Below are positions 2,583 through 59,613 of a stretch of 64,000 bases of DNA, one piece after another. The stretch comes from an uncultured Acidobacteriota bacterium (GTDB lineage: Bacteria; Acidobacteriota; Thermoanaerobaculia; Multivoradales; UBA5704). The translations under genes were made by a program, and so were the position numbers. The notes under the pieces were generated by a model. It searched no databases. It had not been told where the DNA came from and saw only the letters and a program-made list of their open reading frames with translations. The stretch is from contig CAVYRF010000002.1 of the NCBI GenBank assembly GCA_963770895.1, positions 4,832,001 to 4,896,000 of the forward strand, in the 5' to 3' direction. How positions within the stretch are numbered: the stretch's first letter is position 1; each line of letters starts with the position of its first letter.

Positions 2583-2760
2583 ACCGGCGCCGCGAACCTG
2601 AAGCGGCACGGTCAGCCCGCGGTGTCGGCAGGGGCACGGAGGACGCGCCGGGACTGCGCACGCGACCCGTCGATCTCGACCTGGATCCAGGACGCGGCGG
2701 CCGCCAGGGCAGCGGGCGGGGCGGGGTAGTGGACTGGTTTTCCCACGACCGATCTTGCAG

Positions 2761-2777
2761 TTGGTACCGACTTTGCT
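2761..2777 (+). promoter_or_regulatory. Candidate sigma54 (-24/-12) promoter
   Basis: TTGGTACCGACTTTGCT has GG-N10-GC spacing with TTGCT at -12, about 130 nt upstream of the permease ATG. Confidence 0.5.
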
Positions 2778-2907
2778 TCGCGGAACCCGTCAGGGCCGCT
2801 TGCCACAGGTGGCTGGCAGGGGCGCGAAACCTGCGGGGCGGGGCGGCCGTAAGGTGGCACATGCGGCGGCGGTTGGTGCGCCGGCCGGTCATTGCGAGGT
2901 CCAGGCC

Positions 2908-36637: not shown

Positions 36638-39067
36638 TCACTGCACGCGCAAGGTGGACGCGGGATCGACGTTGGTCGCGCGGCGCGCCGGCACCAGGCA
36701 GGCCAGCAGCGCGGTGACGGCCAGGACGATTGCGGTGACGGCAAACTGCAACCAGCTGGCGGCATCGGTTTCGAACAGCTGGCTGGCCAGCAGGCGGCCG
36801 GCAAACCACGAGCCGACGGCGCCGGCGGCCAGGCCGGGGGCGATCCACCGGATGACCGGGCGCAGCGCGCCGGCCAGCACCTGCGCCCGGCTGGCTCCCA
36901 GGGCGACGCGGACGCCGATCTCGCGGCTGCGTTGCGCCACCGAGTGCGCCACGACGCCGTAGATGCCGAGCAGGCAGAGCACCAGGGCCAGGGCTGAAAA
37001 CGCCGAAAACAGCGCGGTGGTCAGCCGCCGGCGCGCCGTGGCGGTGCGCAGCAGCGACTCCATGGTCTGCAGATCGGGAAGCGGCTGGCTGGGGTCCAGG
37101 GCGTTGACCTCGCGCCGCAGGGCGCCGGCGATGCTGGCCGCCGGCAGCCGGGTGCGCAGCGCCAGGGCCATCGAATCGGGAGGCGACATCACGTCCGGCA
37201 GCTGGCGATGAGCAAGCAGCAGCGTCGGCCGCTCGCCTTGCTCGAGCGTCGCCTGCTGGATGTCGTCGAACACGCCGACGATCGCGACCGGCGCCGGGCT
37301 GATGCGCAGGATCAGATGCTGGCCCAGCGGGTTTTCGCCCGCGAAGTACTGGTCGCGGAAGGAGCGGCTGACGATCGCCGTGAGCGGCGCGCCGGGAGCG
37401 CTGCGCGGGTCGAAGTCGCGGCCGGCCAGCAGGCGTGCCTTGATCGTCTGCAGGTAGCCGGCGCCGGCGACGACGCGCAGCACCAGCGGCCGGTTTTCCG
37501 GCGGCAGCGGCGGCCTGCCGGCGATGGCGAAGGTGCCCAGGGCACCCTCCTCCAGCGGCGGCACCTCCACCATCGCAGCCGCCTCGATGCCGGGCAGCGT
37601 GCGCACGCGATCGACCAGGCCCTCGAAGAAGACGCGCCGCGCGGCGGGCGTCGGGTAGCGCGCCGCGGGCAGCGACACCTGCACGAAGGTCAGGTTGTGC
37701 GGGTCGAACCCGAGCTGCATGCCGTTGACCCGCTGCAAGCTGTGCAGCAGCAGCCCCGCCGCCGACAGCAGCACCAACACCAGGGCGACCTGGAACGACA
37801 CCAGCAGGCCCTGGCTGCGGCTCTCCCGCACGCCGCCGGCGGCGCCGCGCGCCGCTTCGCCCAGGAAGGCGCGCGGATCGGTGCGCAGCGTCTGCCACGC
37901 CGGCGCCAGGCCCGCCAGGATGCCGGCGAGCGCGGTGACCAGCAGGGCGAACGCCAGCACGGGCGGCGACAGGTGCACCTGGTCGATGCGCGGCAGGTCC
38001 GCGGGGTTGGCGGCGACCAGCAGCCGCAGCCCCCAGTCCGCCAGGATCACTCCCACCGCGCCGCCGGCGCCGGCGATCAGCAGGCTGTCGCCCAGCGCCT
38101 GGCCGAACACCTGCCGGCGGCCGGCGCCCAGGGCGATGCGGGTGGCGACCTCGCGCCGGCGCGCCAGGCCGGCGGCCAGCAGCAGGTTGGCCACGTCGGC
38201 ACAGGCGATCAGCAGCACCATCCCCACCGCCGCCAGCAGCACCAGCAGGGTGGTGCGGCTCTCGCCGACCAGGATTTCGTTGAGCCGCACCATGCCGAAG
38301 GGGAAGTTGATGTCGAGGTGCCCCTGGGGGTTGGCCTTGTAGGCGGCGAAGACGCGGTCGCCGTCCGCCTGCGCCGCCGCCGGCGAGACGCCCGGGCGCA
38401 GGCGCGCGGTCACCTCCAGGTAGCCGGAGCCCAGCTCCACCGCCTGGCGGGTGAGGAAGGTGATCTGGTTGGGGCGGGGCAGCCACACCTGCGCCGCGCG
38501 GAAGGGGAAGCGATAGGTGTCGGGCATCACGCCGATCACCGTCGTGGGCACGCCGTCGATCTGGATGCTGCGGCCCAGGACCGCCGGCGAGCCGCCGAAC
38601 CGCTGCCGCCAGAAGCCGTACGACAGCAGCGCCACGTCGGGGCCGCCGTCCCGCTGCTCCGCGGCGTTGAAGGCGCGCCCGGCGAGCGGCGCCAGGCCCC
38701 ATACCTCGAAGAAGCCGGCGCTCACCCGCACCGCCCCGATCTGCTGCGGCCGGTCCCGGTCGGTCAGGCCGGCGGTGGTTTCGAAGTGGGCGGCGACGGC
38801 GGCAAGGGCGCGATTGTTCGCCTGGAGCGCCAGAAACCGCGGCCAGGAGACTTCCCGCAGGTCGTGGCGCGGCGTCACGACGACGCCGACGTGCACCAGG
38901 CGGTCGGCGGCGGGGTAGGGCAGCGGGTGCAGGGCGACCGCATCGAGCAGGCTGAAGATCGCGGTGTTGGCGCCGACGGCAAGGGCCAGCGTGCAAGCGG
39001 CGGTGAGCGCCAGGCCCGGCCGGCGCAGCAGGCGGCGGACGCTGCCTTCGATCGCGGATAGCATCAT
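36638..39067 (-). CDS. ADOP-type duplicated ABC permease
   Basis: LALAVGANTAIFS, PLPYP, LLIACADVANLL, GIYGVVAHSVAQRSREIGVRVALG, PARRATNVDP; start overlaps the patatin stop (ATGA). Confidence 0.9.
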   Translation of the reverse strand: MMLSAIEGSVRRLLRRPGLALTAACTLALAVGANTAIFSLLDAVALHPLPYPAADRLVHVGVVVTPRHDLREVSWPRFLALQANNRALAAVAAHFETTAGLTDRDRPQQIGAVRVSAGFFEVWGLAPLAGRAFNAAEQRDGGPDVALLSYGFWRQRFGGSPAVLGRSIQIDGVPTTVIGVMPDTYRFPFRAAQVWLPRPNQITFLTRQAVELGSGYLEVTARLRPGVSPAAAQADGDRVFAAYKANPQGHLDINFPFGMVRLNEILVGESRTTLLVLLAAVGMVLLIACADVANLLLAAGLARRREVATRIALGAGRRQVFGQALGDSLLIAGAGGAVGVILADWGLRLLVAANPADLPRIDQVHLSPPVLAFALLVTALAGILAGLAPAWQTLRTDPRAFLGEAARGAAGGVRESRSQGLLVSFQVALVLVLLSAAGLLLHSLQRVNGMQLGFDPHNLTFVQVSLPAARYPTPAARRVFFEGLVDRVRTLPGIEAAAMVEVPPLEEGALGTFAIAGRPPLPPENRPLVLRVVAGAGYLQTIKARLLAGRDFDPRSAPGAPLTAIVSRSFRDQYFAGENPLGQHLILRISPAPVAIVGVFDDIQQATLEQGERPTLLLAHRQLPDVMSPPDSMALALRTRLPAASIAGALRREVNALDPSQPLPDLQTMESLLRTATARRRLTTALFSAFSALALVLCLLGIYGVVAHSVAQRSREIGVRVALGASRAQVLAGALRPVIRWIAPGLAAGAVGSWFAGRLLASQLFETDAASWLQFAVTAIVLAVTALLACLVPARRATNVDPASTLRVQ

Positions 39068-40926: not shown

Positions 40927-41194
40927 GCCGGTTCCGCGGCCGGCAACCCCCCCGCCGTATCGCGCGCCTGGCGGCGGTGCCGATGCCGGGTGCGGGCCGG
41001 GCTCGGCCGCTCGACTGTTAGACGCAGTCGCGTTTGCAAATTAGCCAATCTTGAGCCACACTTATAGGGCTTCTGCCACATTTCGCGCCGTGCAGCGCTT
41101 TCCGGATGGAGCCAGCGCCAACGGCCCACGACGAGTACCTGATGGTCTGTCTGCCTCCTTGGCAGGGGGCGGATTTACGAGGGAGAAGTCAGAC

Positions 41195-44100
41195 ATGCAA
41201 CTTGGTTTTCGGCCCCTGGTCAAGCTGACAGCTCTGGCGCTCCTGGCGGGTGTGGTGATGACCGCCGCGCCGCTCGCCGCCGCGACACCCACCGCGCAGT
41301 TCACCGCGCTGCTCGATCTCGACAACAACCCCGGCACCGGCTGCACCGTGGCCACGGTCGACGGCCCGTTCAAGGGCGTCGACCAGATGCTGGTGACGAC
41401 GGTCGACCTGACCCAGACGCCGCCGGTGGTGATCTCGGTCACCCGGCAGGCCTGCAACCAGGGCACCCAGACCTTCGGCGCCGCGGTGCCGATCAATTCG
41501 CCCTACGCGCCGCCATGGCCGGTGGGCGTCCACAACGGCACCAGCGGCTCCGACGTGGTGGAAACCTACGTGCCGCTCGGCAACCTGTCGGTCGGGACGA
41601 CGATCCACTTTGGCTTCACTTCCGCCGTGGTCGGCGGCAGCCCGACGGCCGTAGACGCCGACCTGACCACCACCGGCAAGCCCGGCGGCTCGCCGATCCT
41701 GCTGTCGGCGACGCCGCTCGCCGAGGTGCCGACGCTGGGCACCATCGGCCTGCTGCTGCTCGGCCTGCTGCTCGCCTCGAGCGCCGTGTACGTGCTGGGG
41801 CGGCGCGGCGCCGGCCGCGGCACCAAGACCGTGGTGGCCGGCCTGCTGCTGCTCAGCATCGGCATGGGCGTCGCCTGGTCGGCCGGCGACCTGACGCCCA
41901 ACGGCACCACCGGCGGCTGGGCGGGCACCGGCCCGATCGCGGTCGACGTGGTGGGGGACGCGCCGGTCAACGCCGACCTGGTGGCGGAGTTCGCCGCCGT
42001 CCAGAACGACATCCTGTACATCCGCTTTGACGCCTTCATCGCCGGCCAGCCGGCGGTGATGTCCACCACGCCCATCGACGGCGCCACCGGCGTCGCCGGC
42101 AACAGCACCGTGACGGTCACCTTCAACGAACCGGTCGCCGTCACCGCCGCCACCTTCTCGCTGCAGTGCCCGACCGGCACGCCCACGGCGTTCACCCTGT
42201 CGCCCGCGGCGCCCGGCAACGCGTCCACCTACACGCTGACGCCCACCGCCACCCTGCCGCCGGGGGTGACCTGCGCCCTGACGGTGACCGGCAGCACGGT
42301 GACCGATCCCTCGGGCCTGCACATGGCGGGCGACTTCAACTCGACGTTCACCACCGACGGGCCGCCCTCGGTGACCTCGACGACGCCGGCCAACGGCGCC
42401 ACGTCGGTGGCGCTCAACAGCACGGTGACGGTCAACTTCAGCAAGGCGGTCAACGTCACCTCTTCGGCGTTCTCGCTGCAGTGCCCGACAGGCACGCCCG
42501 AAACGTTCAACGTCGCGCCGGCGCCGCCGGGCGGGGCCTCGACCTTCACCCTGACGCCCACGGCGCCGCTGCCCGCCGGCGCCACCTGCACGCTCACCGT
42601 GTCCGCGGCACAGGTGACCGACGTCGCCGCCGGCACCCACATGACGGCGGACTACACCGGCACCTTCACCGTCGACACCGCGCCGACCGTGACCGGCACC
42701 ACCCCCGCCAACGGCGCCACCACGGTGTCGCTCAGCGCGCCGCTCACCGTCACCTTCAGCAAGGCGGTCAACGTCACCGGCACGGCGTTCAAGCTGGAGT
42801 GCCCGACCGGCACCTCCGAACCGTTCACCCTGGCGCCGGCGGCGCCGGGCGGGTCGACGACCTTCACCCTGACGCCCACGGCCAACCTGCCGGCCGCCAC
42901 CACCTGCACCGTCACCGTCGTCGGCTCGCAGGTCACCGACGTGGCGGCGGGCACGCCGCTCGGCGCCAATTACGTCTTTTCGTTCACCACCGACACCGTC
43001 CCCACGGTGACCTCGACGACGCCGACCAACAACGCCACCAACCAGGCGCCGACGACGACGGTGGTGATCAACTTCAGCACCACGATGAACGTCACCGCGT
43101 CGGCGTTCAAGCTGGAGTGCCCGGTGGGCACGCCGCAAGCGTTCACCGTCGCGCCGGCGCCGCCGGGCGGAGCGACCAGCTTCACCCTGACGCCCACGGC
43201 CAGCCTGCCGACCGCGACGACCTGCACGGTCACCGTGGTCGCGTCGCAGGTCGGTGACACCGCCGCCGGCACGCCGATCGCGGCCAACTACGTCTTCACC
43301 TTCGGCGTCGGCACGCCGCCGGCGGTGACCTCGACCACCCCGGCCAGCAACGCCACCAACGTGCTGGCTTCGACGACGATCTCGATCACCTTCAGCAAGG
43401 CGGTCAACGTCACCGGCACCGCCTTCAAGCTGGAGTGCCCGTCCGGCGCGCCGCAGGCGTTCACGGTGTCGCCGGCGCCGCCGGGCGGCGTCACGACGTT
43501 CACCCTGACGCCGTCGGCCAATCTGCCCGCCAGCACGACCTGCACGGTCACCGCGGTGGCGGCGCAGATCACCGATACGGTGGCGGGCCTGCACCCGGCC
43601 GCCGACTACCTGTTCAACTTCACCATCGATTCGCCGCCGACGGTGACTTCCACGACGCCGGCTTCGGGCGCCACGTCGGTGGCGCTCAACTCGACCGTCA
43701 GCTTCACCTTCAACAAGGCGGTCAACATCACCGGCTCGGCGGCGTTCACGCTGCAGTGCCCGAGCGGCACGCCGGTGGCGTTCAACGTCGCGCCGGCAGC
43801 GCCGGGCGGCGTCGCCACCTTCACCCTGACGCCCACCGCCAACATGCCGGCCGGCACGACCTGCACGGCGACGGCGGTGGCGGCGCAGATCAAGGACCTG
43901 GCCGGCACCAACCTGGCCAGCAACTACGTCTTCACCTTCACCACCGACGTCGCGCCGACGGTGACGTCGACGACGCCGGCCAGCGGCGCCAGCTCGGTGG
44001 CGCTCAACTCGACGGTGGTCTTCACCTTCAGCAAGGCGGTCACCACCACGGCGACGTCGTTCACGCTGCAGTGCCCGAGCGGCACGCCGGTGGCGTTCAC

Positions 44101-47100
44101 CACCGCGCCGGCGGCGCCCGGCAACGCCACGACGTTCACCCTGACGCCCGCGGCCAGCCTGCCTGCCGGCACCGTCTGCACGGCGACGGCGGTGGCGGCG
44201 CAGATCACCGACGCGGCCGGCACCCACCTGGCGGCCGACGACGCGATCACCTTCACCACCGACGTCGCGCCGACGGTCACTTCGACGTCGCCGGCCAACG
44301 GCGCCACCAACGTCGTGCCGAGCGCCACGGTGTCCTTCACCTTCAGCAAGGCGGTCAACATCACCGGCGCCTCGGCGTTCACGTTGCAGTGCCCGAGCGG
44401 CACGCCGGTGGCGTTCACCATCGCGCCGGCGGCGCCTGGCAACAGCACGACGTTCACCCTGACGCCGTCGGCCAACCTGCCGATCACCACCGTCTGCACG
44501 GCGACCGCCGTGGCGTCGCAGATCAGCGACGCGGTCGGCACCAACCTGGCGGCCAACGACACCATCACCTTCACCACCGCGACGCCGCCCACCGTCACCT
44601 CGACGACGCCGGCCAACGGCGCCACCGCGGTGCTGGCGACGTCGGCGCTGTCGATCACCTTCAGCCAGGCGGTCAACGTCACCGCGACGGCGTTCACCCT
44701 GCAGTGCCCGAGCGGCACGCCGGCCGCGTTCACGCTCAGCCCGGCGCCGCCCGGCGGCGTCGCCACCTACACGCTGACGCCCAGCGCCGCGCTGCCCGCC
44801 GGCACGGTGTGCACGGCGACCGCGGTGGCGTCGCAGATCACCAGCACCAGCAGCGGCGTCAACCTGCAGAGCAACTACGTCTGGAGCTTCACCGTCGACA
44901 CGCCGCCGACGGTGACCAGCACCACGCCGACCAATGGCGCCACTTCGGTCGCGGTCAGCTCGACGGTGCAGTTCGTGTTCAGCAAGGCGGTCACCACCAC
45001 CGCGTCGTCGTTCACCTTGCAGTGCCCCTCGGGCACGCCGGCCGCCTTCACCGTGGCGCCGGCGCCGCCGGGCAATGCGACGACGTTCACCCTGACGCCG
45101 TCGGCCAACCTGCCTGCCGGCACCACCTGCGTGGCGACGGCGGTGGCGGCGCAGATCGCCGACGCGGCCGGCACGCACCTGGCGGCCAACGTCACCGACA
45201 GCTTCACCACCGACGCCGCGCCGACCGTCACCTCGACGACGCCGACCAACGGCGCCACCTCGGTGGCGCTCAATTCGACGATCGTCTTCACCTTCAACAA
45301 GGCGGTCAACGTGACCGCTTCGGCCTTCACCCTGCAGTGCCCGAGCGGCACGCCGGCCGCGTTCACCCTGAGCCCGGCGCCGCCGGGCAACGCCACGACG
45401 TTTACCCTGACGCCGTCGGCCAGCCTGCCGCCTGGCACCACCTGCGTGGCGACGGCGGTGGCGTCGCAGATCACCGATTCGGTGGGCACCAACCTGGCGG
45501 CCAACGTCACCGACAGCTTCACCACCGACGTGGCGCCGACCGTCACCTCGACGACCCCGGCCAACAGCGCCACCAACGTGTCGCCGAGCACGACGGTGGT
45601 CTTCACCTTCAGCAAGGCGGTCAACATCACCGGCGGGTCGGCCTTCACCCTGCAGTGCCCGAGCGGCACGCCGGTCGCCTTCACGGTCGCGCCGGCGGCG
45701 CCTGGCAACTCGACGACGTTCACCCTGACGCCGTCGGCCAGCCTGCCGGTGACCACCACCTGCACGGCGACCGCCGTGGCGTCGCAGATCAGCGACGCTG
45801 CCGGCACCAACCTGGCGGCCAACGACACCATCACCTTCACCACCGCGACGCCGCCGACGGTGACCTCGACGACGCCGGCCAACGGCGCCACCGCGGTGCT
45901 GGGCACGTCGGCGCTGTCGATCACCTTCAGCCAGGCGGTCAACGTGACCGCCTCGGCGTTCACCCTGCAGTGTCCGACCGGCACGCCGGAAACGATCACC
46001 GTGAGCCCGGCGCCGCCGGGCGGCGTCGCCACTTTCACGCTGACGCCGACGACGGCCCTGCCTGCCGGCGTGGTGTGCACGGCGACGGCGGTGGCGTCGC
46101 AGATCACCAGCGCCAGCTCGGGCGCGAACCTGCAGAGCAACTACGTCTGGACCTTCACGGTCGATACGGCGCCGACGGTGACCAGCACCACTCCGGCCAA
46201 CGCCGCCACCACGGTGGCGCTCAATTCGACGGTGACGTACACCTTCAGCAAGGCGGTCAACGTCACCGCCTCGGCCTTCACCCTGCAGTGCCCGAGCGGC
46301 ACGCCGGTCGCGTTCACCCTGAGCCCGGCACCGCCGGGCGGCACCACGACGTTCACCCTGACGCCCAGCGCCAACCTGCCGGCCGGCACGGTTTGCACGT
46401 CCTCGGCGGTGGCGTCGCAGATCACCGACCTGGCCGGCACGCACCTGGCGGCCAACGACACGATCAGCTTCACGACCGATACGGCGCCGACGGTCAGCTC
46501 GGTCAGCCCGGCCAACGGCGCCACCGGCGTCCTGCAGTCCGCGACGCTCACCGTCAACTTCAACAAGGCGGTCAACATCACCGCCTCGTCCTTCACCTTG
46601 GCCTGTCCGACCGGCACGCCGGAAGCCTTCACGGTCAGTCCCGCACCGCCCGGCGGCGCGACCACCTTCACCCTGACGCCGTCCGCCAACCTGCCGGCGG
46701 GCGCGGTATGCACGGCGACCGTGGTGGCCAGTCAGACGACCGACACCACGGCAGGGACGCCGCTGGCCAGCAACTTCACGTGGAGCTTCACCATCGACAC
46801 GCCGCCGACGGTGTCTTCGACCGTGCCAGCCAACGGCGTCAGCAATTTCGTCGACACCAGCGCGCTGTCCGTGACCTTCAACAAGGCGGTCAACGTCACC
46901 GGCACGGCGTTCTCGGTGCAGTGTCCGACCGGAACTCCCGTCACCATCACCGTCAGCCCGACGCCGCCCGGTGGGGTCACCACGTTCACGCTGACGCCCA
47001 CCAGCAACCTGCCGCCCAACGTCAGCTGCACGGCGCAGGTGGTGGCGGCGCAGGTCGCCGACCTGGCCGGCACCAACATGGCGGCCAACTACACCTGGAC

Positions 47101-49390
47101 CTTTGCCACCGTGCCGCCGCCGCCGGTCGCCACCAACGACACCTATCCCCAGACGGTGATCGGCAACGTCAGCATCAACTCGGGGCTGATTCCGTACAGC
47201 GTCACCACCAACGACACCTCGCAGGTGGCGTTCACCATCACCGCCTACGACACCACCTCGGCCAACGGCGGCACCGTCAGCATGGTCACGTCGGGCGCCA
47301 ACATGGGGCAGTTCACCTACAACCCGCCGGCCGGCTTCACGGGGACGGACACCTTCACCTACACGATCACCAACACCGGCGGCAGCGCTACCGCGACGGT
47401 AAGCATCTCGGTCAGCGGCATCATCTGGTTCATCAACAACAACGCCAGCGCGGGCGACGGGCGCCTGGCCTCGCCGCTCAACACGCTGGCCGCCTTCCAG
47501 GCGGTCAACGACGGGGTGGGACACCACCCGGCGGCCAACGCCAACATCTTCCTGTACGACAGCGCGACCGGCTACACCGGTCCGGTGACCCTGCTCAACG
47601 GCCAGAAGCTGATCGGTCAGGACGCCACGTCGTCGCTGTCGACGATCACCGGCCTGACGCCGGGGACGGCCAGCGCGACGCTCCCCTCGACCGGCGGCGG
47701 CAGCCCGAACAAGGTTTCCATCACCTCCCCGGGCAACACCGTGACGCTCGGCTCCGGCAACACGGTGTGGGGCATGACCCTGGGCAACTCGGTCGGCACG
47801 GCGCTCACCGGCGGCAGCGTGGGCAGCCTCAAGCTGCGTGACATGACGATCAATACCACCGGCGCCGCGGTCAGCCTTGCCAACGGCGCCCTGGACGCGA
47901 TCCTCAACGCCGTCTCTTCGGGCAGCGGCACCAACGGCATCGCGCTGACCACCACTACCGGCTCGTTCGACGTCGAAGGCGGCGGCGCCTCCGACCCGAC
48001 CAACACCACCCGCGGGCGCACCACCGCCAAGAGCGGCGGCGGCACCATCACGCTGGGATCGGGCGGCACCATCCAGGACGCCACCAGCGCCGGCGTCCTG
48101 CTGTCGAGCGCCACCAACGTGACGCTGCGCAACATGGTCATTCAAAACAACGGTGGCACCGGGGTGGCGAGCGGCGGCGACGGCATCAACGCCAGCGGTT
48201 CGTCGGGCCTGACCCTGGACAACGACATGATCACCGGCCACACCGGCAACTACGGCCTGTATGCCAGCAGCCTGGCCACCCTGGCGATCCAGCACACGCA
48301 GATCTCGTCGAACGCCACCAACGCGGCAGTGGCCGGCTCCAACGTCTGGAACGTCGGCTTCGGCCAGCAGCCGCCCTGCACCGTCTGCCCCGACGGCCTG
48401 AGCGGCACCTCGACGATCGCCAACTCGATCTTCGACACGTCGTACGAGAACTCCTTCTCGATGGTCAACCACAATGCGTCCACGCTGTCGCTGACCGTCA
48501 CCAACAGCCAGTTCAGCAACGCCGCCCACAACGACGGCCTGCTGGCGCAGGCGTTCAACACGTCCAACGTCACGCTGAGCGTCACCGGTAGCAGCGTCTT
48601 CAACAACCCCGGCGGCGGCGTCGAGTACCTGGGCAACGACTCGTCGGGCGGCGGCACCTTCACCGTCACCGGCAGCACCTTCGATCAGAACGGCGGTGCG
48701 GGCGGCGCCGACATCAACGTCTTCCACCAGGGCCTGAGCAAGACGGTGACGTTCGACTTCGAGAACAACACCACCCGCCAGACGCTGGTCGCCAACAGCT
48801 CGGCATCGATCAGCGTCGTCATCGGCCCGTCGGCAAACGCCACGACCCTGCTGCAGGGCAAGGTCAACGGCAACACCGTCGGCAAGGCCTCGGTGACCGA
48901 TTCGTGCTCGGCCGACTCGTCGGGCATCGGCCTGCAGACCGACGCGCCGGGCACCATCACCGCGGAAGTCGAAAACAACGCCGTGGTGCAGTGCGACGAC
49001 GACGCCCTGCTGGTCCTGGCAACCAGCACGACCACCAGCACCATCAACCTCACCGCATCGGGCAACGACCTGGAGGTGAGCCCGACCGATCCCAATACCA
49101 ACCTGGGCCTGGAGCTGACGGCGGGCGGCAGCGACGGCTCCGACGTCATCTGCGCCAACGTCTCGGGCGACAGCAAGGAGATCGGCAACTCGGGGGTGGC
49201 GGGCATCGCCACCGAGGTGCTGGGCACCTCGGTCATCAACTTGCAGGGCTACCCCGGCCCGGCCAACAACAACGCCGCGATCGCGACGTTCCTCAACGGC
49301 ACCGCGACGACGGTGTCGCCGGCAGGATTGAACTTTGGCGGCGGCGGCACGGTGAAGGCGGCGCCTTCGCCCTGCCCGACGCCGCCCTGA
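41195..49390 (+). CDS. Giant secreted Ig-repeat / beta-helix surface protein (2731 aa)
   Basis: Signal peptide (..TAAPLAA); internal VPTL plus TM plus RR plus second hydrophobic segment; 16 SbsA/Big_5-like repeats; cadherin/Big_9-like unit (FTYNPPAGFTGTDTFTYT); WFINN..GDG..SP motif then Asn/Gly/Thr-rich beta-helix. Confidence 0.9.
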   Translation: MQLGFRPLVKLTALALLAGVVMTAAPLAAATPTAQFTALLDLDNNPGTGCTVATVDGPFKGVDQMLVTTVDLTQTPPVVISVTRQACNQGTQTFGAAVPINSPYAPPWPVGVHNGTSGSDVVETYVPLGNLSVGTTIHFGFTSAVVGGSPTAVDADLTTTGKPGGSPILLSATPLAEVPTLGTIGLLLLGLLLASSAVYVLGRRGAGRGTKTVVAGLLLLSIGMGVAWSAGDLTPNGTTGGWAGTGPIAVDVVGDAPVNADLVAEFAAVQNDILYIRFDAFIAGQPAVMSTTPIDGATGVAGNSTVTVTFNEPVAVTAATFSLQCPTGTPTAFTLSPAAPGNASTYTLTPTATLPPGVTCALTVTGSTVTDPSGLHMAGDFNSTFTTDGPPSVTSTTPANGATSVALNSTVTVNFSKAVNVTSSAFSLQCPTGTPETFNVAPAPPGGASTFTLTPTAPLPAGATCTLTVSAAQVTDVAAGTHMTADYTGTFTVDTAPTVTGTTPANGATTVSLSAPLTVTFSKAVNVTGTAFKLECPTGTSEPFTLAPAAPGGSTTFTLTPTANLPAATTCTVTVVGSQVTDVAAGTPLGANYVFSFTTDTVPTVTSTTPTNNATNQAPTTTVVINFSTTMNVTASAFKLECPVGTPQAFTVAPAPPGGATSFTLTPTASLPTATTCTVTVVASQVGDTAAGTPIAANYVFTFGVGTPPAVTSTTPASNATNVLASTTISITFSKAVNVTGTAFKLECPSGAPQAFTVSPAPPGGVTTFTLTPSANLPASTTCTVTAVAAQITDTVAGLHPAADYLFNFTIDSPPTVTSTTPASGATSVALNSTVSFTFNKAVNITGSAAFTLQCPSGTPVAFNVAPAAPGGVATFTLTPTANMPAGTTCTATAVAAQIKDLAGTNLASNYVFTFTTDVAPTVTSTTPASGASSVALNSTVVFTFSKAVTTTATSFTLQCPSGTPVAFTTAPAAPGNATTFTLTPAASLPAGTVCTATAVAAQITDAAGTHLAADDAITFTTDVAPTVTSTSPANGATNVVPSATVSFTFSKAVNITGASAFTLQCPSGTPVAFTIAPAAPGNSTTFTLTPSANLPITTVCTATAVASQISDAVGTNLAANDTITFTTATPPTVTSTTPANGATAVLATSALSITFSQAVNVTATAFTLQCPSGTPAAFTLSPAPPGGVATYTLTPSAALPAGTVCTATAVASQITSTSSGVNLQSNYVWSFTVDTPPTVTSTTPTNGATSVAVSSTVQFVFSKAVTTTASSFTLQCPSGTPAAFTVAPAPPGNATTFTLTPSANLPAGTTCVATAVAAQIADAAGTHLAANVTDSFTTDAAPTVTSTTPTNGATSVALNSTIVFTFNKAVNVTASAFTLQCPSGTPAAFTLSPAPPGNATTFTLTPSASLPPGTTCVATAVASQITDSVGTNLAANVTDSFTTDVAPTVTSTTPANSATNVSPSTTVVFTFSKAVNITGGSAFTLQCPSGTPVAFTVAPAAPGNSTTFTLTPSASLPVTTTCTATAVASQISDAAGTNLAANDTITFTTATPPTVTSTTPANGATAVLGTSALSITFSQAVNVTASAFTLQCPTGTPETITVSPAPPGGVATFTLTPTTALPAGVVCTATAVASQITSASSGANLQSNYVWTFTVDTAPTVTSTTPANAATTVALNSTVTYTFSKAVNVTASAFTLQCPSGTPVAFTLSPAPPGGTTTFTLTPSANLPAGTVCTSSAVASQITDLAGTHLAANDTISFTTDTAPTVSSVSPANGATGVLQSATLTVNFNKAVNITASSFTLACPTGTPEAFTVSPAPPGGATTFTLTPSANLPAGAVCTATVVASQTTDTTAGTPLASNFTWSFTIDTPPTVSSTVPANGVSNFVDTSALSVTFNKAVNVTGTAFSVQCPTGTPVTITVSPTPPGGVTTFTLTPTSNLPPNVSCTAQVVAAQVADLAGTNMAANYTWTFATVPPPPVATNDTYPQTVIGNVSINSGLIPYSVTTNDTSQVAFTITAYDTTSANGGTVSMVTSGANMGQFTYNPPAGFTGTDTFTYTITNTGGSATATVSISVSGIIWFINNNASAGDGRLASPLNTLAAFQAVNDGVGHHPAANANIFLYDSATGYTGPVTLLNGQKLIGQDATSSLSTITGLTPGTASATLPSTGGGSPNKVSITSPGNTVTLGSGNTVWGMTLGNSVGTALTGGSVGSLKLRDMTINTTGAAVSLANGALDAILNAVSSGSGTNGIALTTTTGSFDVEGGGASDPTNTTRGRTTAKSGGGTITLGSGGTIQDATSAGVLLSSATNVTLRNMVIQNNGGTGVASGGDGINASGSSGLTLDNDMITGHTGNYGLYASSLATLAIQHTQISSNATNAAVAGSNVWNVGFGQQPPCTVCPDGLSGTSTIANSIFDTSYENSFSMVNHNASTLSLTVTNSQFSNAAHNDGLLAQAFNTSNVTLSVTGSSVFNNPGGGVEYLGNDSSGGGTFTVTGSTFDQNGGAGGADINVFHQGLSKTVTFDFENNTTRQTLVANSSASISVVIGPSANATTLLQGKVNGNTVGKASVTDSCSADSSGIGLQTDAPGTITAEVENNAVVQCDDDALLVLATSTTTSTINLTASGNDLEVSPTDPNTNLGLELTAGGSDGSDVICANVSGDSKEIGNSGVAGIATEVLGTSVINLQGYPGPANNNAAIATFLNGTATTVSPAGLNFGGGGTVKAAPSPCPTPP
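42050..47110 (+). repeat. 16 tandem 315-321 nt repeats encoding two-Cys Ig-like domains
   Basis: First-Cys codons at 42167, 42482, 42800, 43118, 43436, 43757, 44072, 44390, 44705, 45023, 45338, 45656, 45971, 46289, 46604, 46922. Confidence 0.93.
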
Positions 49391-49400
49391 CCCTGGGGGG

Positions 49401-49440
49401 TGCGCCGGTTCCTTGCTCCCGATCGGGAGGGGCCGGCGCA
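49401..49440. other. Intergenic GC-rich hairpin without U-tract
   Basis: TGCGCCGG...CCGGCGCA arms enclosing the perfect palindrome CTCCCGATCGGGAG (49416-49429). Confidence 0.6.
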
Positions 49441-49506
49441 ACGCAGCAGCTTCGGTAGGTGACGACGCAGTCAGCAGTGAACCGATGGATCGGATAAGGA
49501 GAAAGA

Positions 49507-50004
49507 ATGGGCACGCCATTCCTGTCGGAGATCAAGATCATGTCCTTCGGGTTCGCCCCCAAGGGTTGGGCGTTGTGTAACGGCCAACTGCTTCCGATCA
49601 ACCAGAACCAGGCCCTGTTTTCCTTGTTGGGCACCACCTACGGCGGCGACGGGCGGGTGAACTTCGGCCTGCCGAACCTGCAGGGGAACGTGGCCACCCA
49701 CTTCGGCGCCGGCATGACCCTGGGCGAGCGGGGCGGCGAGCAGGCCCACACGCTGTCGATCAGCGAGATCCCGACGCACGTCCACACCGCCCAGGCCACC
49801 ACCAACAACAGCACCTTCACCGACACCGCCTCGCCCAACATCTTCGGGCCGGCCAAGATCTACGGCAGCGCCACCAGCCTGACGTCGCTCCTGCCGTCCA
49901 CGCTGGGGACGATCGGCGGCTCGCAGGCGCACCTGAACATGCAGCCCTTCCTGGTGCTCTCCTTCTGTATCGCCCTCCAGGGCATCTTCCCGTCGCAAAC
50001 TTGA
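49507..50004 (+). CDS. Phage tail-collar domain / MdpB-like protein 1
   Basis: PFLSEIKIMSFGFAPKGWALCNGQLLPINQNQALFSLLGTTYGGDG..FGLPNLQG; HVH; H.NMQPFL...CIALQGIFP. Confidence 0.92.
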   Translation: MGTPFLSEIKIMSFGFAPKGWALCNGQLLPINQNQALFSLLGTTYGGDGRVNFGLPNLQGNVATHFGAGMTLGERGGEQAHTLSISEIPTHVHTAQATTNNSTFTDTASPNIFGPAKIYGSATSLTSLLPSTLGTIGGSQAHLNMQPFLVLSFCIALQGIFPSQT

Positions 50005-50017
50005 GGAGCGACCTGCC

Positions 50018-50527
50018 ATGTCCCAACCATACGTAGGCGAGATTCGCATGTTCGCCGGCAACTTCGCGCCGGCGGGGTGGATGTTCACCGAGGGGCAGCT
50101 GCTGCCGATCTCCGAATACGAAACCCTGTTCAACCTCATCGGCACCACCTACGGCGGCGACGGCCAGAGCACCTTCGCCCTTCCCGACCTGCGCGGGCGC
50201 CTGCCCGTCCACCAGGGCAACGGCTTCACACTGGCGGAAACCGGCGGCGTCGAGACGGTGACGCTTTCCATACCGCAGATCCCCGCCCACAGCCATCCCT
50301 ACCTGGCGACCACCACTGCGGGCGACTCCGCGGTGCCCAACAACAACGTGTTGGGCACGCAGTCGGTGGCCGGCAACCTGCTGTACACGCCGGCGGCGGG
50401 GACCCTGCCGATGGCCGCCACGGCGATCACCGCGACCGGCGGCAGCCAGCCGCACGACAACTTCCAGCCCTATCTCTGCATCGACTTCATCATCTCGCTG
50501 TTCGGCGTGTTCCCGTCGCCAACCTGA
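50018..50527 (+). CDS. Phage tail-collar domain / MdpB-like protein 2
   Basis: PYVGEIRMFAGNFAPAGW...GQLLPI...LF.LIGTTYGGDG..FALPDLRGR; HSH; PHDNFQPYL. Confidence 0.92.
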   Translation: MSQPYVGEIRMFAGNFAPAGWMFTEGQLLPISEYETLFNLIGTTYGGDGQSTFALPDLRGRLPVHQGNGFTLAETGGVETVTLSIPQIPAHSHPYLATTTAGDSAVPNNNVLGTQSVAGNLLYTPAAGTLPMAATAITATGGSQPHDNFQPYLCIDFIISLFGVFPSPT

Positions 50528-50537
50528 GGAAACGGCC

Positions 50538-51065
50538 ATGGCAAATCCATTCGTCGCAGAGATCCGCATCTTCCCGTTCAACTTCGCGCCCACCGGCTGG
50601 GCGTTCTGCAACGGCCAGATCCTGCCGCTGTCGCAGAACACCGCTCTGTTCTCGCTGCTCGGCACGACCTACGGCGGCGACGGCAAGTCCAACTTTGCCC
50701 TGCCCAACATGCAGGGCAACTCGCCCATGCATCCCGGCCAGGGGCCCGGCCTCAGCCTGCACGACCTGGGCGAAACCGGCGGCAGCAACACGGTGACGCT
50801 GCTCGAGTCCGAGATCCCTTCGCACAGCCACCAGATCATGACGTTCGGCGCCCAGGCGACCGCGCCGGCGCCGGCGCCCAACGAGGGGCTGAGCCGCTCC
50901 CGCGGCGTGATGGCGTACTCCACCACCACCACCGCGTCCCTGGTGCAGATGTCCCCCAACACGGTGGCGCCGGCCGGCGGCGACCAGCCGCACAACAACC
51001 TGCAGCCCTACCTGACGCTCAACTTCTGCATCGCGCTGCAGGGCGTCTACCCGCCGCGCACCTAG
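50538..51065 (+). CDS. Phage tail-collar domain / MdpB-like protein 3
   Basis: PFVAEIRIFPFNFAPTGWAFCNGQILPLSQNTALFSLLGTTYGGDG..FALP; HSH; PHNNLQPYL.LNFCIALQG. Confidence 0.92.
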   Translation: MANPFVAEIRIFPFNFAPTGWAFCNGQILPLSQNTALFSLLGTTYGGDGKSNFALPNMQGNSPMHPGQGPGLSLHDLGETGGSNTVTLLESEIPSHSHQIMTFGAQATAPAPAPNEGLSRSRGVMAYSTTTTASLVQMSPNTVAPAGGDQPHNNLQPYLTLNFCIALQGVYPPRT

Positions 51066-51293: not shown

Positions 51294-52871
51294 TCAGGGC
51301 GGGTTGCCGGAGTCGGCGAGGCCGATGCCGAGGGTGGCCAGCAGGTCGCCGCGCACCGCCAGCAGGCCGACGCGCGCGTCGAGCAGGCCCGCGGCGGCCT
51401 TGATCTCCTCTTCGCGGGCGTCGGCCAGGGCGGCCTCGCGGCTGTCCTGGGCGTCCGGCTGGGCGCGCCCCTCGGCGGCCAGGGCGCCGCTGATGCGCAG
51501 GTCTTCTTCGGCGACGGCGCTGGCCTGGCGGGCGATGTCGAGCCCGGCGCGGGCCTGGTCCAGGGTCGCTTCGGCGCGGTGGACGTCGATCGCCAGCTGC
51601 TCGACGCGGGCGCCGCGCTGCTGCTTGAGCTGTTCGATGTTGGCGTCGCTGCGGGCGATGCCGTCGCGCTGCCGGCCGCCGGTCCACAGCGGGTAGGAGA
51701 GCGCCAGGGCGACGCTCCAGTCGTCTTCGCGGAACTTGACGTAAAATTGGTCGACGCCGTTGGCGCGCGACAGGCGCGAATACTGCGCCTCGGCGTCGAC
51801 GGTGAGCGGCGACAGCCACCCGTCGCGCTGCTCGCGGGCGCGGGTCAGCAGCGCGATCTGGTGGTCCAAGCCGTGCAGGGTGACGTCGGCGGCCAGCGCC
51901 GCCGCCAGGTTCGGGTCCGGCGGGGCAGGAGGGCTTTCCGCACCGGGTGTGGGGGGGGCCGGCGCGGTGGCGGCGGGCGGCGTGGTGTTCGCCGGGTTCG
52001 CCGGGTTTGCTGAGCTCGCCGGCGCGGCGGGATCCGGAAGGTCGGCCAGTGGATCGGTGGGGAGGTCGAGCGCGGCGCCGGCGGGCAGGCCCAGGCGCCG
52101 GCGCAGCTCCCATTGGTCGGCGTCGCGCGCCGACACGACCTCCAGGCGGCGCAGGCGGGCCTTGGCTTCGCGCAGGCGCGCCTGGGCCAGGTCGAGGTCG
52201 GTGGACCGCCCCTCGGCGTGCAGGTCGGCGGCGCGGCGGCTCATCGCCTCGCAGGCGGCCAGGCGGCGGTCGGCGGCGGCGACGAGCTGCTGGCCGCTCC
52301 AGGCGCGGGCGTACAGGGCGGCGACGGTTCGCGCCGTGGTGACGCGCGTCCGCAGCCAGGTCGCCTGCGTCACCGCGGTGGTGGCGCGCGCCGAAAACCC
52401 CTTGGCGCGCTGCTCGTTGTTGTACAGCAGCTGGTGCACGCCGACGCTGGCCACCGCCGGCACCTGGCCGGCCACCGCCACCGGCAGCCCGCGGCCAATG
52501 CCCGGCGTCGAGCTGACGCCCGCTTCGGGCCGGAAAGCGTCGGCCACGACGCGCGCGGCGGCGTCGTCGGCAGCCGCCGCGGCCGCCGCGGCCGCCACCT
52601 CGGGATCGTTGCCCAGCCCGAGCGCGGTCGCCCGCCGCAGGGACAGCGTGCCGCTGCCGTCCGCTGCCGTCGGTGCAGACGGATTCGGTTGGGCCGCGAC
52701 GACGCCCCCCGTGGCGGTCGCGGCGAATGTAGGGAGCGGCACGGCCAGGGTGGCCAACAGTGCGGTGACGATGACGGCGGCGACGGCGGCGGCGGCGGCC
52801 GGCGACCGGCGGTGGGCGGCGCGGCGAGGCGCGGCCGGCATGACCGGTGCAGGGCGTTGGCGGTCATTCAT
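51294..52871 (-). CDS. TolC-family outer membrane efflux protein
   Basis: Signal peptide; LSLRRA..L.L.N.PE; helical repeats; WSVAL.LSYPLWTGG; last gene of an efflux operon. Confidence 0.8.
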   Translation of the reverse strand: MNDRQRPAPVMPAAPRRAAHRRSPAAAAAVAAVIVTALLATLAVPLPTFAATATGGVVAAQPNPSAPTAADGSGTLSLRRATALGLGNDPEVAAAAAAAAADDAAARVVADAFRPEAGVSSTPGIGRGLPVAVAGQVPAVASVGVHQLLYNNEQRAKGFSARATTAVTQATWLRTRVTTARTVAALYARAWSGQQLVAAADRRLAACEAMSRRAADLHAEGRSTDLDLAQARLREAKARLRRLEVVSARDADQWELRRRLGLPAGAALDLPTDPLADLPDPAAPASSANPANPANTTPPAATAPAPPTPGAESPPAPPDPNLAAALAADVTLHGLDHQIALLTRAREQRDGWLSPLTVDAEAQYSRLSRANGVDQFYVKFREDDWSVALALSYPLWTGGRQRDGIARSDANIEQLKQQRGARVEQLAIDVHRAEATLDQARAGLDIARQASAVAEEDLRISGALAAEGRAQPDAQDSREAALADAREEEIKAAAGLLDARVGLLAVRGDLLATLGIGLADSGNPP

Positions 52872-54102
52872 GGCGCAGGGCCTCCACCGGGTTCATGTTG
52901 GCGGCGCGCAGGGCGGGGACCAGGCCGAACAGCACCGTCACGCCGCAGGAGAAGACGAAGGCCAGGACCGCGGCCACCGCCGACACCTGGATCTTGAAGT
53001 TCTGGATCAGCAGGCGCGCGGCGATCGGCAGGGCGAGGCCGCCGACGACGCCCAGCAGCGACCCCAGCGACCCCAGGAGCAGCGCTTCGAGCAGGAACTG
53101 GTGCAGGATGTCGCGCCGGCGCGCGCCGACGGAGATGCGCAAGCCGATTTCGCGGGTGCGCTGCTCGACCGAGGCGAGCAGGATGTTCATGATGCCGACG
53201 CCGCCGACCACCACCGACACCGCGGCGACCAGGATGAACACCAGCAGCAGGCCGACCGAGATGGTGTTGGCGACGCGCACCACGGCGCTCATGCTGGTCA
53301 CGTTGTACTGCGAGCCGGGGTGGTGGCGCTCGCGCAGGATCTGCTCGACGGCCGAGACTGCCAGCGGCATCTCGTCGAAGTCGTAGACCTGGGCGAACAG
53401 GGTGTCGATGCGGTGCGACTGGGTGAAGAACCAGCTGGTGGTGATGGGGACGAAGATGGTGTCGGGGGTGACGTCGCCCTGGCCCAGGGTGTCCACCGGC
53501 TCGACGAATTCGCCGATCACCGAAAAGGTCAGCCCGAGCGTATGGATGGTCTTGCCGGCGAGCTGGTCGTCGCCCGGCCACAGCTGGTCGTACAGGTGGC
53601 GGCTGACGATGCAGACCTTGGCCTGCTCGCTCACGTCGTCTTCGTCGAGGAAGCGGCCGAGCAGCACGGTGAGGTTCTTGCGCACCACCGGATAGTTGGC
53701 GGTGGTGCCCAGCACGGTGAGGTTGAGGCTGCGCGCCTGCACCGCCACCTCGCCGTGCAGGATGGCGAGCGGCGTCACGCCGGCGAACAGGTCGTGGCGG
53801 CCCGCCACCGCCGTGGCGTCGGTGTCGCGGATGAAGTCGTCTTCCATCCGCGCCTGGCCGGCGCTGGTGGTGCCGACGTAGGTGGCCCACAGCAGGTGGG
53901 AGCCGACGCCCTCGATCTGCGACATGACGAAGCTGCGGCCGGTGAGGCCCAGCGCCACCACGACGATGATCGCCGCGGTGCCGACGAACAGGCCGATCAG
54001 GGTGAGCCAGGTCTGCAACGGGTTGGTGTGAAAGCGCTGCAGGGCGCTTTCGACCACCTCGGGGCGGGGCAGCCAATCAATGCGGTTTGGCTTCGACGAC
54101 AC
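52864..54102 (-). CDS. MacB/FtsX-like ABC permease without fused ATPase (start uncertain)
   Basis: LTLIGLFVGTAAII, GRFL, SVVVGGVGIMNILLASVEQRTREIGLR.SVGA, PALRAANMNPVEALRHE. Confidence 0.9.
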   Translation of the reverse strand: MSSKPNRIDWLPRPEVVESALQRFHTNPLQTWLTLIGLFVGTAAIIVVVALGLTGRSFVMSQIEGVGSHLLWATYVGTTSAGQARMEDDFIRDTDATAVAGRHDLFAGVTPLAILHGEVAVQARSLNLTVLGTTANYPVVRKNLTVLLGRFLDEDDVSEQAKVCIVSRHLYDQLWPGDDQLAGKTIHTLGLTFSVIGEFVEPVDTLGQGDVTPDTIFVPITTSWFFTQSHRIDTLFAQVYDFDEMPLAVSAVEQILRERHHPGSQYNVTSMSAVVRVANTISVGLLLVFILVAAVSVVVGGVGIMNILLASVEQRTREIGLRISVGARRRDILHQFLLEALLLGSLGSLLGVVGGLALPIAARLLIQNFKIQVSAVAAVLAFVFSCGVTVLFGLVPALRAANMNPVEALRHE

Positions 54103-55375: not shown

Positions 55376-55461
55376 GGCGGCGCGGCGCCAGGGGCGCCGG
55401 CGGCGCCGCTCCGGCCGCTCGGAGGGGTGTCCGAGGAGCGGTGGGGTCGGGCGGTCGGCGC

Positions 55462-58362: not shown

Positions 58363-58633
58363 CCAACACCTCCTGGAAAGCAGCATCGGAACCATCGCGT
58401 TTGCGTTCGCGGATGCCACCCCGGCCGCGTCGGGTCGCGACGGCGGCGCAAGGCGATGGGCCACACGGCTATACAGCGTACACTTTGCCAGCTGCCGAAT
58501 TGTAGCACGCTCTGGCGCTTGAGTTTAGCGGCGGTTGCGCGCGGCGCCGAGGCGGCCGCGGCGGCGGCCTGGGCGCGCGCGGCGGGACCCCCGCGCCGGC
58601 CGCGGTGGGGAGGTGCGGCGGTGCGCTCCGCCG

Positions 58634-59483: not shown

Positions 59484-59613
59484 TCTCCCGTTGCGACGAC
59501 GACATCGGGGACGGCAAAACTCAAATGCTCCAGACGCGATGCATCACAGTATATGCTATCGACGAACAACTGAGCCAGGCTTCCAGGACGTCGGCAGGTA
59601 TCCGGGAGGTACC

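Follow-up and report, generated by a model that had tools for sequence, protein, structure and literature searches.

The subject of this report is a row of four genes in the window, by which we mean the whole 64,000-nucleotide stretch analysed here from the genome of an uncultured Acidobacteriota bacterium of the Multivoradales (contig CAVYRF010000002.1). The first gene encodes a giant stalk protein, and the next three, col1, col2 and col3, encode small proteins of the phage tail-collar family (PF07484). A giant gene with three collar genes beside it is a conserved non-phage unit that recurs in many bacterial phyla. Its likely product is a long fibre on the cell surface, with a binding head of three parts. 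The specific model that we favour, at a probability of about 0.5, is that the three collar proteins form a heterotrimeric head of hypervariable fibre tips, working with the beta-helix end of an anchored stalk. The cassette is widespread and apparently unpublished, and the window's copy has variations of its own. A preliminary description made from the sequence alone had called the arrangement a candidate undescribed surface appendage, and we likewise found no published account of cells in which a collar triplet accompanies giant surface proteins; subscription journals lay outside the literature searched, here and where we refer to that search below. The same description had the four genes co-oriented, and all of them are on the + strand. 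The features are the following.

41195..49390 (+): giant stalk protein P0001, 2731 amino acids (aa); open translation, Pfam Big_5 x16 and Big_9
41195..41284 (+): signal-peptide-like N-terminus, residues ~1-30, ending TAAPLAAA; read from the translation
41285..41722 (+): conserved N-terminal domain, residues ~31-176, without a Pfam family; alignment, tblastn
41723..41881 (+): predicted membrane hairpin; sequence, conservation, Pfam PF18203 matches in orthologues
42347..47111 (+): immunoglobulin (Ig)-like Big_5 repeat array, the stalk; Tandem Repeats Finder, Pfam
47120..47407 (+): Big_9 / cadherin-like Ig domain, residues 1976-2071; Pfam, expect value (E) 3.8e-10
47408..49372 (+): predicted right-handed parallel beta-helix with N-cap and C-cap; AlphaFold2 (AF2) model, Foldseek, conserved alignment columns
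49373..49387 (+): C-terminal Cys-Pro tail, here with a CPTPP end; Cys-(1-4 residues)-Pro endings in 31/45 upstream large open reading frames (ORFs)
49402..49439 (+): inverted repeat rich in guanine and cytosine (GC), between the giant's stop and col1, without a T-run; read by eye
49496..49501 (+): AAGGAG ribosome-binding site, 5 nt ahead of the start codon (ATG) of col1; sequence
49507..50004 (+): col1 (P0002), 165 aa, with HVH and a hypervariable insert at ~96-136; Pfam, tree, conservation profile
50018..50527 (+): col2 (P0003), 169 aa, with HSH and a hypervariable insert at ~99-139; Pfam, tree, Protein Data Bank (PDB) matches, conservation profile
50538..51065 (+): col3 (P0004), 175 aa, with HSH, a GQGPGLS insertion and a hypervariable insert at ~99-143; Pfam, tree, conservation profile

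The question of how old and how fixed the triplet is can be asked first within the window's order. Of 41 genomes of the order, the window's own included, 33 have PF07484 matches. The number of matches reaches three or more in 31 genomes and is exactly three in 24, and where there are exactly three they lie ~520 bp apart. A maximum-likelihood tree of 63 collars from 21 loci gathers the proteins of position 1 in one clade (100/96) and those of position 2 in another (98/94), and the three position labels need 2 changes on that tree, which is the minimum. The triplication is therefore older than the order, and each copy has been kept. In a wider search that took a single genome for each prokaryotic species, the best 78 loci share 56-72% identity with col1, and they belong to Acidobacteriota, Verrucomicrobiota, Chloroflexota, Actinomycetota, Pseudomonadota, Bacteroidota, Eremiobacterota, Myxococcota and Gemmatimonadota.

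The neighbourhood of the triplets was surveyed in 99 loci, namely the window, 20 loci of the same order and 78 from other taxa, with collars counted by tblastn. These loci hold 104 collar arrays, 99 of them with at least three collars, and 84 of the 104 run in the best-match order 1-2-3. In 19 of the 20 same-order loci, L017 being the exception, col1 is preceded on its own strand by an orthologue of the giant, an ORF of 1381-2766 aa whose end is 15-136 bp away. Such a survey for giant adjacency had been proposed in the preliminary description. Over all loci, 49 of 99 arrays (40 of the 65 with at least 5 kb on both flanks) have an ORF of 1500 aa or more on their own strand and no farther than 500 bp away, compared with 2.0% of 20,000 random placements in the window genome. 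That genome measures 8.16 Mb, is rich in spurious long ORFs and has 906 stop-to-stop ORFs of at least 1000 aa, and the GC content of the window is ~72%. A looser criterion, an ORF of at least 1000 aa within 3 kb, was satisfied by 70 of 99 arrays and was dropped because its background in this high-GC genome is 28%.

Tandem double triplets occur in some of L025, L062, L072, L100, L103 and L104, and L104, a 5.5-kb contig from a viral collection, consists of nine successive collar genes. In a Lysobacteraceae genome (L031:10554-11054), the second collar gene has an in-frame stop, which may mark a pseudogene or an assembly error.

The three proteins had been described beforehand as paralogous collar proteins of 165-175 aa, and Pfam agrees, with PF07484 matches at E = 9.4e-26 for col1, 2e-28 for col2 and 7.3e-27 for col3, scoring 90.0, 98.6 and 93.5 bits against a gathering score of 24 bits. 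Their genes are closely packed, with 116 bp from the giant to col1, 13 bp from col1 to col2 and 10 bp from col2 to col3. No promoter emerged from a sigma-70 scan. The inverted repeat ahead of col1 was not among the results of a terminator scan, whose terminator-like matches were no commoner than in shuffled sequence. By sequence, col2 matches two phage fibre tips in the PDB, the long tail fibre of cyanophage A-1(L) (8kec; E = 1e-6, or 4.6e-11 with a profile) and the receptor-binding domain of T4 gp12 (E = 7e-4, or 3e-5 with a profile), and PHROGs tail protein families match all three collars over nearly their full length, with a best E of 8e-28. In alignments of the paralogues, an HxH motif, two further His and one Asn are invariant across the three, and the HxH aligns with PSHQH of 8kec_A. 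In gp12 and gp37, such a motif coordinates a metal ion at the axis of the trimer.

Conservation within the collars is strongly uneven. Across phyla it is ~0.9 for residues 1-95 and from 140 to the end, and ~0.4 in an insert of ~40 residues between them. Most differences of the window collars from their same-genus orthologues fall in this insert, and in col2 it takes 30 of 34, inside residues 99-139. Phage fibre tips of the gp12, gp37 and 8kec type bind cell-surface glycans or proteins via their distal loops. By sequence similarity, and probably in fold to judge by a fused homologue (see below), the collars resemble T4 gp12 (1ocy, 5iv5), the gp37 tip (2xgf) and 8kec in having a collar, an HxH and a head, and from their sequences we read them as whole fibre-tip modules of phage type, each with a hypervariable insert. 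They differ in that the phage module is the C-terminal end of one long homotrimer chain with a fibrous shaft, whereas the window collars are free-standing proteins of 165-175 aa in three fixed paralogues, with neither shaft nor phage genes. Positive selection among Solibacter collar paralogues was reported in 2011 (PMC3174227; this and the papers below are cited from excerpts of their text).

Other bacteria have the collar types fused in one chain, and these fusions suggest how the window's separate proteins might be put together. We took the best 120 of 1385 longer col2 homologues (E <= 1e-10, 297-2000 aa) and typed their modules with the three paralogue profiles. The module order was 2-1-3 in 22 of them, 3-3-3 in 27 more divergent ones, 2-1 in 25 and 2-3 in 12. 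Within the same best 120, 47 have a hydrophobic N-terminal leader and 33 have PEP near the C-terminal end, and examples of these forms consist of a leader, three modules and VPEP...RRRR, which is a PEP-CTERM-like end. The AF2 model of one 2-1-3 chain, made with 25 relatives, is compact, with a predicted local distance difference test (pLDDT) score of 87.5 and a predicted template modelling (pTM) score of 0.85. Its modules superimpose on T4 gp12 337-527 with Z = 6.2 (root-mean-square deviation, rmsd, 4.6 A, 130 residues aligned), on 8kec with Z = 6.2 (rmsd 2.5 A, 116 aligned, 28% identity) and on gp37 811-1026 with Z = 5.8, all of these being middling values obtained with a natural fused homologue rather than with the window collars. 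There is also a weak fold match to a Bizionia C24 protein (Z = 3.0). Giant proteins, too, can have collars embedded in them: at E <= 0.001, col2 matches 49,154 clusters at 50% identity, and the best 150 of them include 8 multi-copy proteins of 1191-4832 aa with 3, 6 or 11 collar stretches, partnered by Cadherin_4, Big_9, DUF4347, fn3, Calx-beta and Big_12/13 domains.

The closest precedent, a biochemical one, comes from the virophage DSLV2, in which three consecutive PF07484 proteins co-purify via one tag as a 1:1:1 complex (J Virol 2025, PMC12724248). The complex runs at ~55 kDa on native gels, forms fibres of ~16 nm and binds Synechococcus cells and lipopolysaccharide (LPS), and the same triplet is found in 45 virophages with position-specific clades (PMC12724248). 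Going by this published description, the window's triplet is like that of DSLV2 in having three consecutive co-oriented PF07484 genes of ~170-180 aa products, a variable head and position-specific clades. It is unlike it in that the virophage proteins belong to the virion, with a predicted place on a capsomer (PMC12724248), whereas triplets of the window's type are chromosomal, occur in many phyla beside a giant, usually with a GNAT and a DUF6916 gene as well, and are far more conserved (56-72% identity across phyla). From the kept copies and their order, the 2-1-3 chains, the model of one such chain and the DSLV2 precedent, we infer that Col1, Col2 and Col3 probably form a 1:1:1 heterotrimer. 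A heterotrimer has no threefold symmetry, so it could bind a single-chain partner in one defined way.

The candidate for that partner is the distal end of P0001. An AF2 model of residues 1935-2731 (797 aa, alignment of 17 homologues) scores pLDDT 79.6 and pTM 0.80, with the Big_9 region at pLDDT ~90. In it, an Ig domain leads into an extended right-handed parallel beta-helix. The N-cap motif IWFINN...GDGRL..P..TL is kept across the giants in conserved alignment columns. The piece that BLAST finds in common with giants of other phyla is residues 1981-2260, which is Big_9, the beta-helix cap and the first rungs. The place of this shared module depends on which side of the triplet the giant is encoded. 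Its median position is 0.12 of the protein length in 19 giants downstream of a triplet and 0.61 in 16 giants upstream of one, where the remaining beta-helix fills the C-terminal end after the module. The shared module is therefore always at the end that is encoded beside the collar genes, and in the window the predicted membrane anchor is at the other end of the protein.

Many of the upstream giants finish in a short tail with the pattern Cys-(1-4 residues)-Pro. Large ORFs immediately upstream of triplets were picked across loci L004-L096, and the tail falls within the last 14 residues in 31 of the 45, a set in which some are wrong-frame shadows. The endings are typically CPTPP, CPIP or CSLP, they are found in Proteobacteria, Acidobacteria, Actinomycetota and Chloroflexota, and a (L/Q)(P/Q)GY.G motif stands ~40 residues before the tail. 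One possibility is that the tail serves as a docking peptide. On the gene linkage and the placing of the shared module, we lean toward a physical or functional partnership between the collars and the beta-helix end of the giant, with rather less assurance than we have in the heterotrimer.

The rest of P0001 makes a plausible stalk. The preliminary description had it as a secreted protein of 2731 aa with 16 Ig repeats, a cadherin-like unit and a beta-helix tip, and the parts are recovered as 16 Big_5 stretches (Pfam E = 1.6e-220), the Big_9 domain and the AF2 beta-helix. The repeats form a tandem array at 42347-47111 with a period of 318, 15.0 copies and 74% matches by Tandem Repeats Finder. 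Same-order relatives have different stalks, with 14-16 Big_5, 8 Cadherin or 7 Big_9/Cadherin_4 domains, but the N-terminal module and the C-terminal 800 residues are common to them all. In 17 giants from other phyla, the domains were Calx-beta, PKD, Cadherin, Big_5, Big_12, DUF11, RTX or DUF4347, and two had no match. The mechanical ORF of the window's giant gene starts at a TTG at 41051; we take the ATG at 41195 as the start because the alignment of orthologues favours it. An antisense ORF of 2776 aa (41189-49519, -) shadows the giant gene, and another reverse frame across the gene has stops every 318 bp. We rejected the antisense ORF as a gene, regarding it as an artefact of high GC and the repeat array.

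How the stalk might be held to the cell is the part of the protein where the preliminary description was incomplete. It was right that P0001 has no C-terminal anchor, as the chain ends ...APSPCPTPP, and it overlooked a probable anchor at the other end. All 11 aligned orthologues have a hydrophobic leader at the N-terminus. A domain of ~145 aa follows, with invariant D41, D43, G49, C50 and C87 and others in the alignment of orthologues, and tblastn also finds this domain in same-order giants and Gammaproteobacteria-type loci. After it comes VPTLG, a hydrophobic helix (...LLLGLLLA...; predicted transmembrane segment at residues ~177-202), an Arg-rich loop RRGAGRG, and a second hydrophobic segment at residues ~210-229 that ends in AWSA, with a conserved DG..W.G....D..GDAP segment downstream. 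The layout is kept in 11 of 11 aligned orthologues. The (I/V)PTLG, hydrophobic helix and Arg cluster are like those of the IPTL-CTERM sorting signal (Pfam PF18203, TIGR04174), and PF18203 matches the same internal place in orthologues from L014 (187-212, E = 4e-6) and L021 (182-207, E = 1.5e-6). The window's own segment falls below the Pfam threshold for PF18203, and there are 11 ordinary IPTL-CTERM matches elsewhere in the window genome. What is unlike IPTL-CTERM is that the motif in P0001 is internal, at residues ~177-205, with a second hydrophobic segment and 2500 more residues after it, and because of this it could not act as a C-terminal signal unless the chain were cut. The simplest reading of the N-terminal module is a membrane hairpin that anchors this end of the giant. 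Cleavage after AWSA, with the second helix as a cleavable internal signal, is also possible. A search for the module as a free-standing protein gave 2 matches, both apparently fragments.

The model that we favour would work as follows. A signal peptide would direct the giant out of the cytoplasm, and the N-terminal hairpin would fix it in the cytoplasmic membrane. The hairpin would be made of the IPTL-CTERM-like helix, the Arg loop and the second helix that might double as a cleavable signal. The sixteen Ig repeats would then form a rod several tens of nanometres long, with Big_9, the right-handed beta-helix and the Cys-Pro tail as its distal end. Col1, Col2 and Col3 would assemble 1:1:1 into one pseudo-threefold head, each contributing a collar, an HxH metal site and a head. 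The conserved scaffolds would pack together and the three hypervariable inserts would make up the binding face, most likely for polysaccharide. The heterotrimer would dock on the beta-helix end of the giant as its single-chain partner, and the device would serve in adhesion or in recognition of cells or polymers, its specificity shifting by swaps of inserts and stalks.

Several findings weigh against this model, and the main weakness, as the sequences stand, is that the collars are leaderless, as no signal peptide is found on them in the window or in any phylum sampled. Even among the best 120 of the 1385 fused forms, 69 have no leader. The survey counts describe a pattern and not independent samples, because the loci were chosen via their collars and include kin, and 29 of 99 arrays have no large same-strand ORF within 3 kb by the looser criterion, many of these having short flanks. 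Big_9 and a beta-helix cap are common in surface proteins, so the similarity of the shared module may be partly generic, and some giants that adjoin triplets, for example in Mesorhizobium, have no similarity to the window's beta-helix module. The structural comparisons bring only middling Z-scores, from a homologue. As for expression, contigs of several soil metagenomes contain this stretch, 19 short contigs represent RNA-library matches of relatives, and one soil RNA library has a 190-nt contig that spans the junction of col2 and col3 and equals 50492-50681 letter for letter, which is only a weak hint because RNA libraries can contain DNA.

The other members of the cassette also count here. 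Of the 95 loci with a full array, 84 have a homologue of a GNAT acetyltransferase (Pfam Acetyltransf_1/_3/_7), which in 48 is directly downstream on the same strand, and 73 have a small protein of the DUF6916 type. Both proteins look cytoplasmic, and neither is encoded beside the triplet in the window or in its closest relative, L004. In the window genome the two genes are instead found side by side in divergent orientation, at the very tip of an 88-kb contig (C3:86816-87977, or L182:10816-11977), where the small protein matches DUF6916 with E = 4e-29 and the GNAT is 55-57% identical to GNATs that adjoin triplets of same-genus relatives. The preliminary description had overlooked this pair, and also the virophage heterotrimer (PMC12724248). 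DUF6916 is not mentioned in the literature that we searched.

The rival that survives best takes these points together: the collars would be cytoplasmic and never touch the giant, and with the GNAT and DUF6916 proteins they would make an intracellular sensor, regulator or synthesis/export factor, the gene linkage reflecting co-regulation only. The missing signal peptides, the leaderless majority of the fused forms and the frequent GNAT and DUF6916 genes all fit it, as does the absence of an assigned function for the relatives RhiB and MrpB in the excerpted reports (PMC13133039, PMC3328848). Against it are the fused three-collar chains with Sec leaders and PEP-CTERM anchors, the collars embedded in giant adhesin-like proteins, inserts of the hypervariable kind that is typical of outward-facing binding sites, and the virophage homologues that bind LPS from outside (PMC12724248). 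We therefore argue from the leader-bearing and giant-embedded fusions that the head works outside the cell, on a stalk. We rate the cytoplasmic explanation as unlikely and somewhat favour an extracellular site of action for the collars.

A second rival keeps the binding heads and changes their composition, proposing three different homotrimers as three alternative heads, with or without the giant as carrier. In its favour, phage collar proteins such as T4 gp12 and gp37 are homotrimers, the three inserts do differ from one another, and there are two-module fusions of the 2-1 and 2-3 orders. Against it, one copy per type is arranged in the order 1-2-3 in 84 of 104 arrays, there are single chains with exactly one module per type, collars are embedded in giants in threes and sixes, and the DSLV2 triplet co-purifies 1:1:1 (PMC12724248). 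We consider separate homotrimers quite improbable.

The beta-helix raises a third alternative, equally improbable in our view, namely that it is a polysaccharide lyase or hydrolase and the device a tethered depolymerase, with the collars as its carbohydrate-targeting subunit in a role comparable to that of the receptor-binding proteins of phage tailspikes. The best Foldseek matches are the upper tail protein of phage Andhra (8egr_B, E = 3e-4) and a GH28 enzyme (2uvf_B, E = 6e-4), and others are PL6 lyases, GH87, GH110 and the HK620 tailspike. The enzymes and depolymerase tailspikes among them and an N-cap motif conserved across the giants could be counted in its favour. However, all the matches are weak, the best E being 3e-4 and the template modelling (TM) score 0.3 or less, and they include the non-enzymes pertactin and PfbA. 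Neither Pfam nor NCBIfam matched a catalytic family in P0001.

That the triplet is a decaying fragment of a prophage or tailocin, lying beside an adhesin gene by chance, is contradicted. The domain's name, phage tail collar, and the PHROG tail families that match all three proteins speak for it. Against it, the 33 ORFs of the window that were scanned include no other phage gene, core chromosomal genes such as those for Lnt, RF2 and glycogen debranching enzyme surround the triplet, PF07484 has only these three matches in the whole genome, position-specific orthology of the triplet is kept across the order and many phyla, the frames are intact with a scaffold ~90% conserved, and the best-covering phage homologues are at most 42% identical and are single domains in longer tail proteins. 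In particular, Pfam finds no capsid, baseplate, sheath, terminase or integrase among the 33 ORFs, just as the preliminary description had reported for the window. It had also made its idea depend on the triplets not being mainly prophage-borne, and the phage searches give no sign that they are. Of 50,697 phage records, 1025 match col2, three at 60-80% identity and 1022 below 60%. The best-covering rows are at 37-42% identity and are parts of longer 'minor tail proteins', with a record seldom having more than one of them, set against 56-72% for cellular triplets. The best 80 viral-contig loci, drawn from 2.9 million contigs, have a top identity of 57%, with one copy in 58 and at least three in 13.

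The favoured model of a heterotrimeric head on an anchored stalk can be carried further, into a reading of the whole cassette as a cellular tail fibre in many phyla. The collars would assemble in the cytoplasm as a metal-centred heterotrimer, be acetylated by the GNAT, be escorted by DUF6916, leave the cell without a leader, and dock by the base of the head on the Cys-Pro-tailed beta-helix end of the giant. The three inserts would specify which neighbour, prey, host or polymer is held, and phage and virophage tips and the cellular head would be two branches of one old receptor-binding module. The acetylation step is an idea only, suggested by the Acetyltransf_3 match together with the small second residue of every collar. 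Among the 72 aligned collar rows with a Met at the start, all but one (71) read M-[A/S/G]-x-P-[F/Y] from residue 1, and N-alpha-acetylation of this N-terminus by the GNAT is conceivable, as the Acetyltransf_3 family includes the Rim-type N-terminal acetyltransferases. This extended reading is doubtful as a whole.

Among established systems, the closest comparison for the stalk is with bacterial giant repeat adhesins such as the RTX adhesins, which are rods of Ig or cadherin domains whose distal end has a separate region for ligand binding. P0001 is like them in its long tandem Ig-like rod and in the repeat number, which varies strongly among relatives. It is unlike the RTX adhesins in having no RTX repeats (Pfam finds no HemolysinCabind repeats in P0001) and no type 1 secretion signal, having a Sec-type leader and N-terminal hairpin instead, and in having a beta-helix tip and three separately encoded fibre-tip proteins. 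For the collars, the comparison is with cellular members of the family. In Microcystis, the mrpC gene presumably adjoins mrpAB. The MrpA/MrpB context includes the extracellular cell-contact glycoprotein MrpC (PMC3328848). RhiB of rhiABC in Rhizobium, MrpB of Microcystis and the 'microcystin-dependent protein MdpB' of COG4675 belong to the same domain family and are encoded by chromosomal or plasmid genes of cells (PMC13133039, PMC6969944, PMC3328848). The operons of the rhiABC type, as the excerpts describe them, differ from the window in having one collar protein with the unrelated partners RhiA and RhiC (PMC13133039, PMC6969944).

The remaining genes of the window include those for a DeoC aldolase, MacB-type permeases, a patatin, a cytochrome c, an HlyD-MacB-OEP set, a TonB-dependent-receptor-like protein, Lnt, RF2, a glycogen debranching enzyme and NfeD/SPFH. 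The set at 51294-58464 (-), convergent to the collars, consists of OEP, a MacB/FtsX permease at 52864-54150, HlyD and a CarboxypepD_reg/TonB-dependent-receptor-like protein, and no ABC ATPase gene was seen within it. It is probably unrelated to the triplet, because it is syntenic with the triplet only in the same-genus L004. Two more MacB_PCD/FtsX permease genes are at 2602-5370 and 36638-39000. The 1130-aa protein of 59356-62748 has weak TPR and Peptidase_MA_2 matches, below the Pfam cut-offs. PADLOC-DB (2023 library) gave no defence-model match at E <= 0.001 for 5 proteins or fragments. At the other surveyed loci, a Peripla_BP_6 protein recurs in 8, and just downstream of the triplet or GNAT there is an ORF of ~255 aa without a Pfam family in 13 (L005, L006, L007, L008, L013, L014, L016, L019, L020, L023, L024, L048 and L055); the window does not have it.

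The collar family is large, and its cellular members (COG4675/MdpB, RhiB, MrpB) have stood for more than twenty years without an assigned function. A fixed triplet tied to giants in soil, water and plant-associated bacteria gives the family a concrete role that can be tested, and carriers that can be cultivated are at hand in Mesorhizobium, Bradyrhizobium, Flavobacterium phragmitis, Chiayiivirga flava and Nocardioides currus. What the window adds is the predicted hairpin anchor, the beta-helix module beside the collar genes, the Cys-Pro tail, and the GNAT/DUF6916 half of the cassette on another contig. The triplet tied to giants also suggests a way in which a monomeric stalk may carry a binding head of the trimer type, and the swapping of inserts could retune what the cell sticks to.

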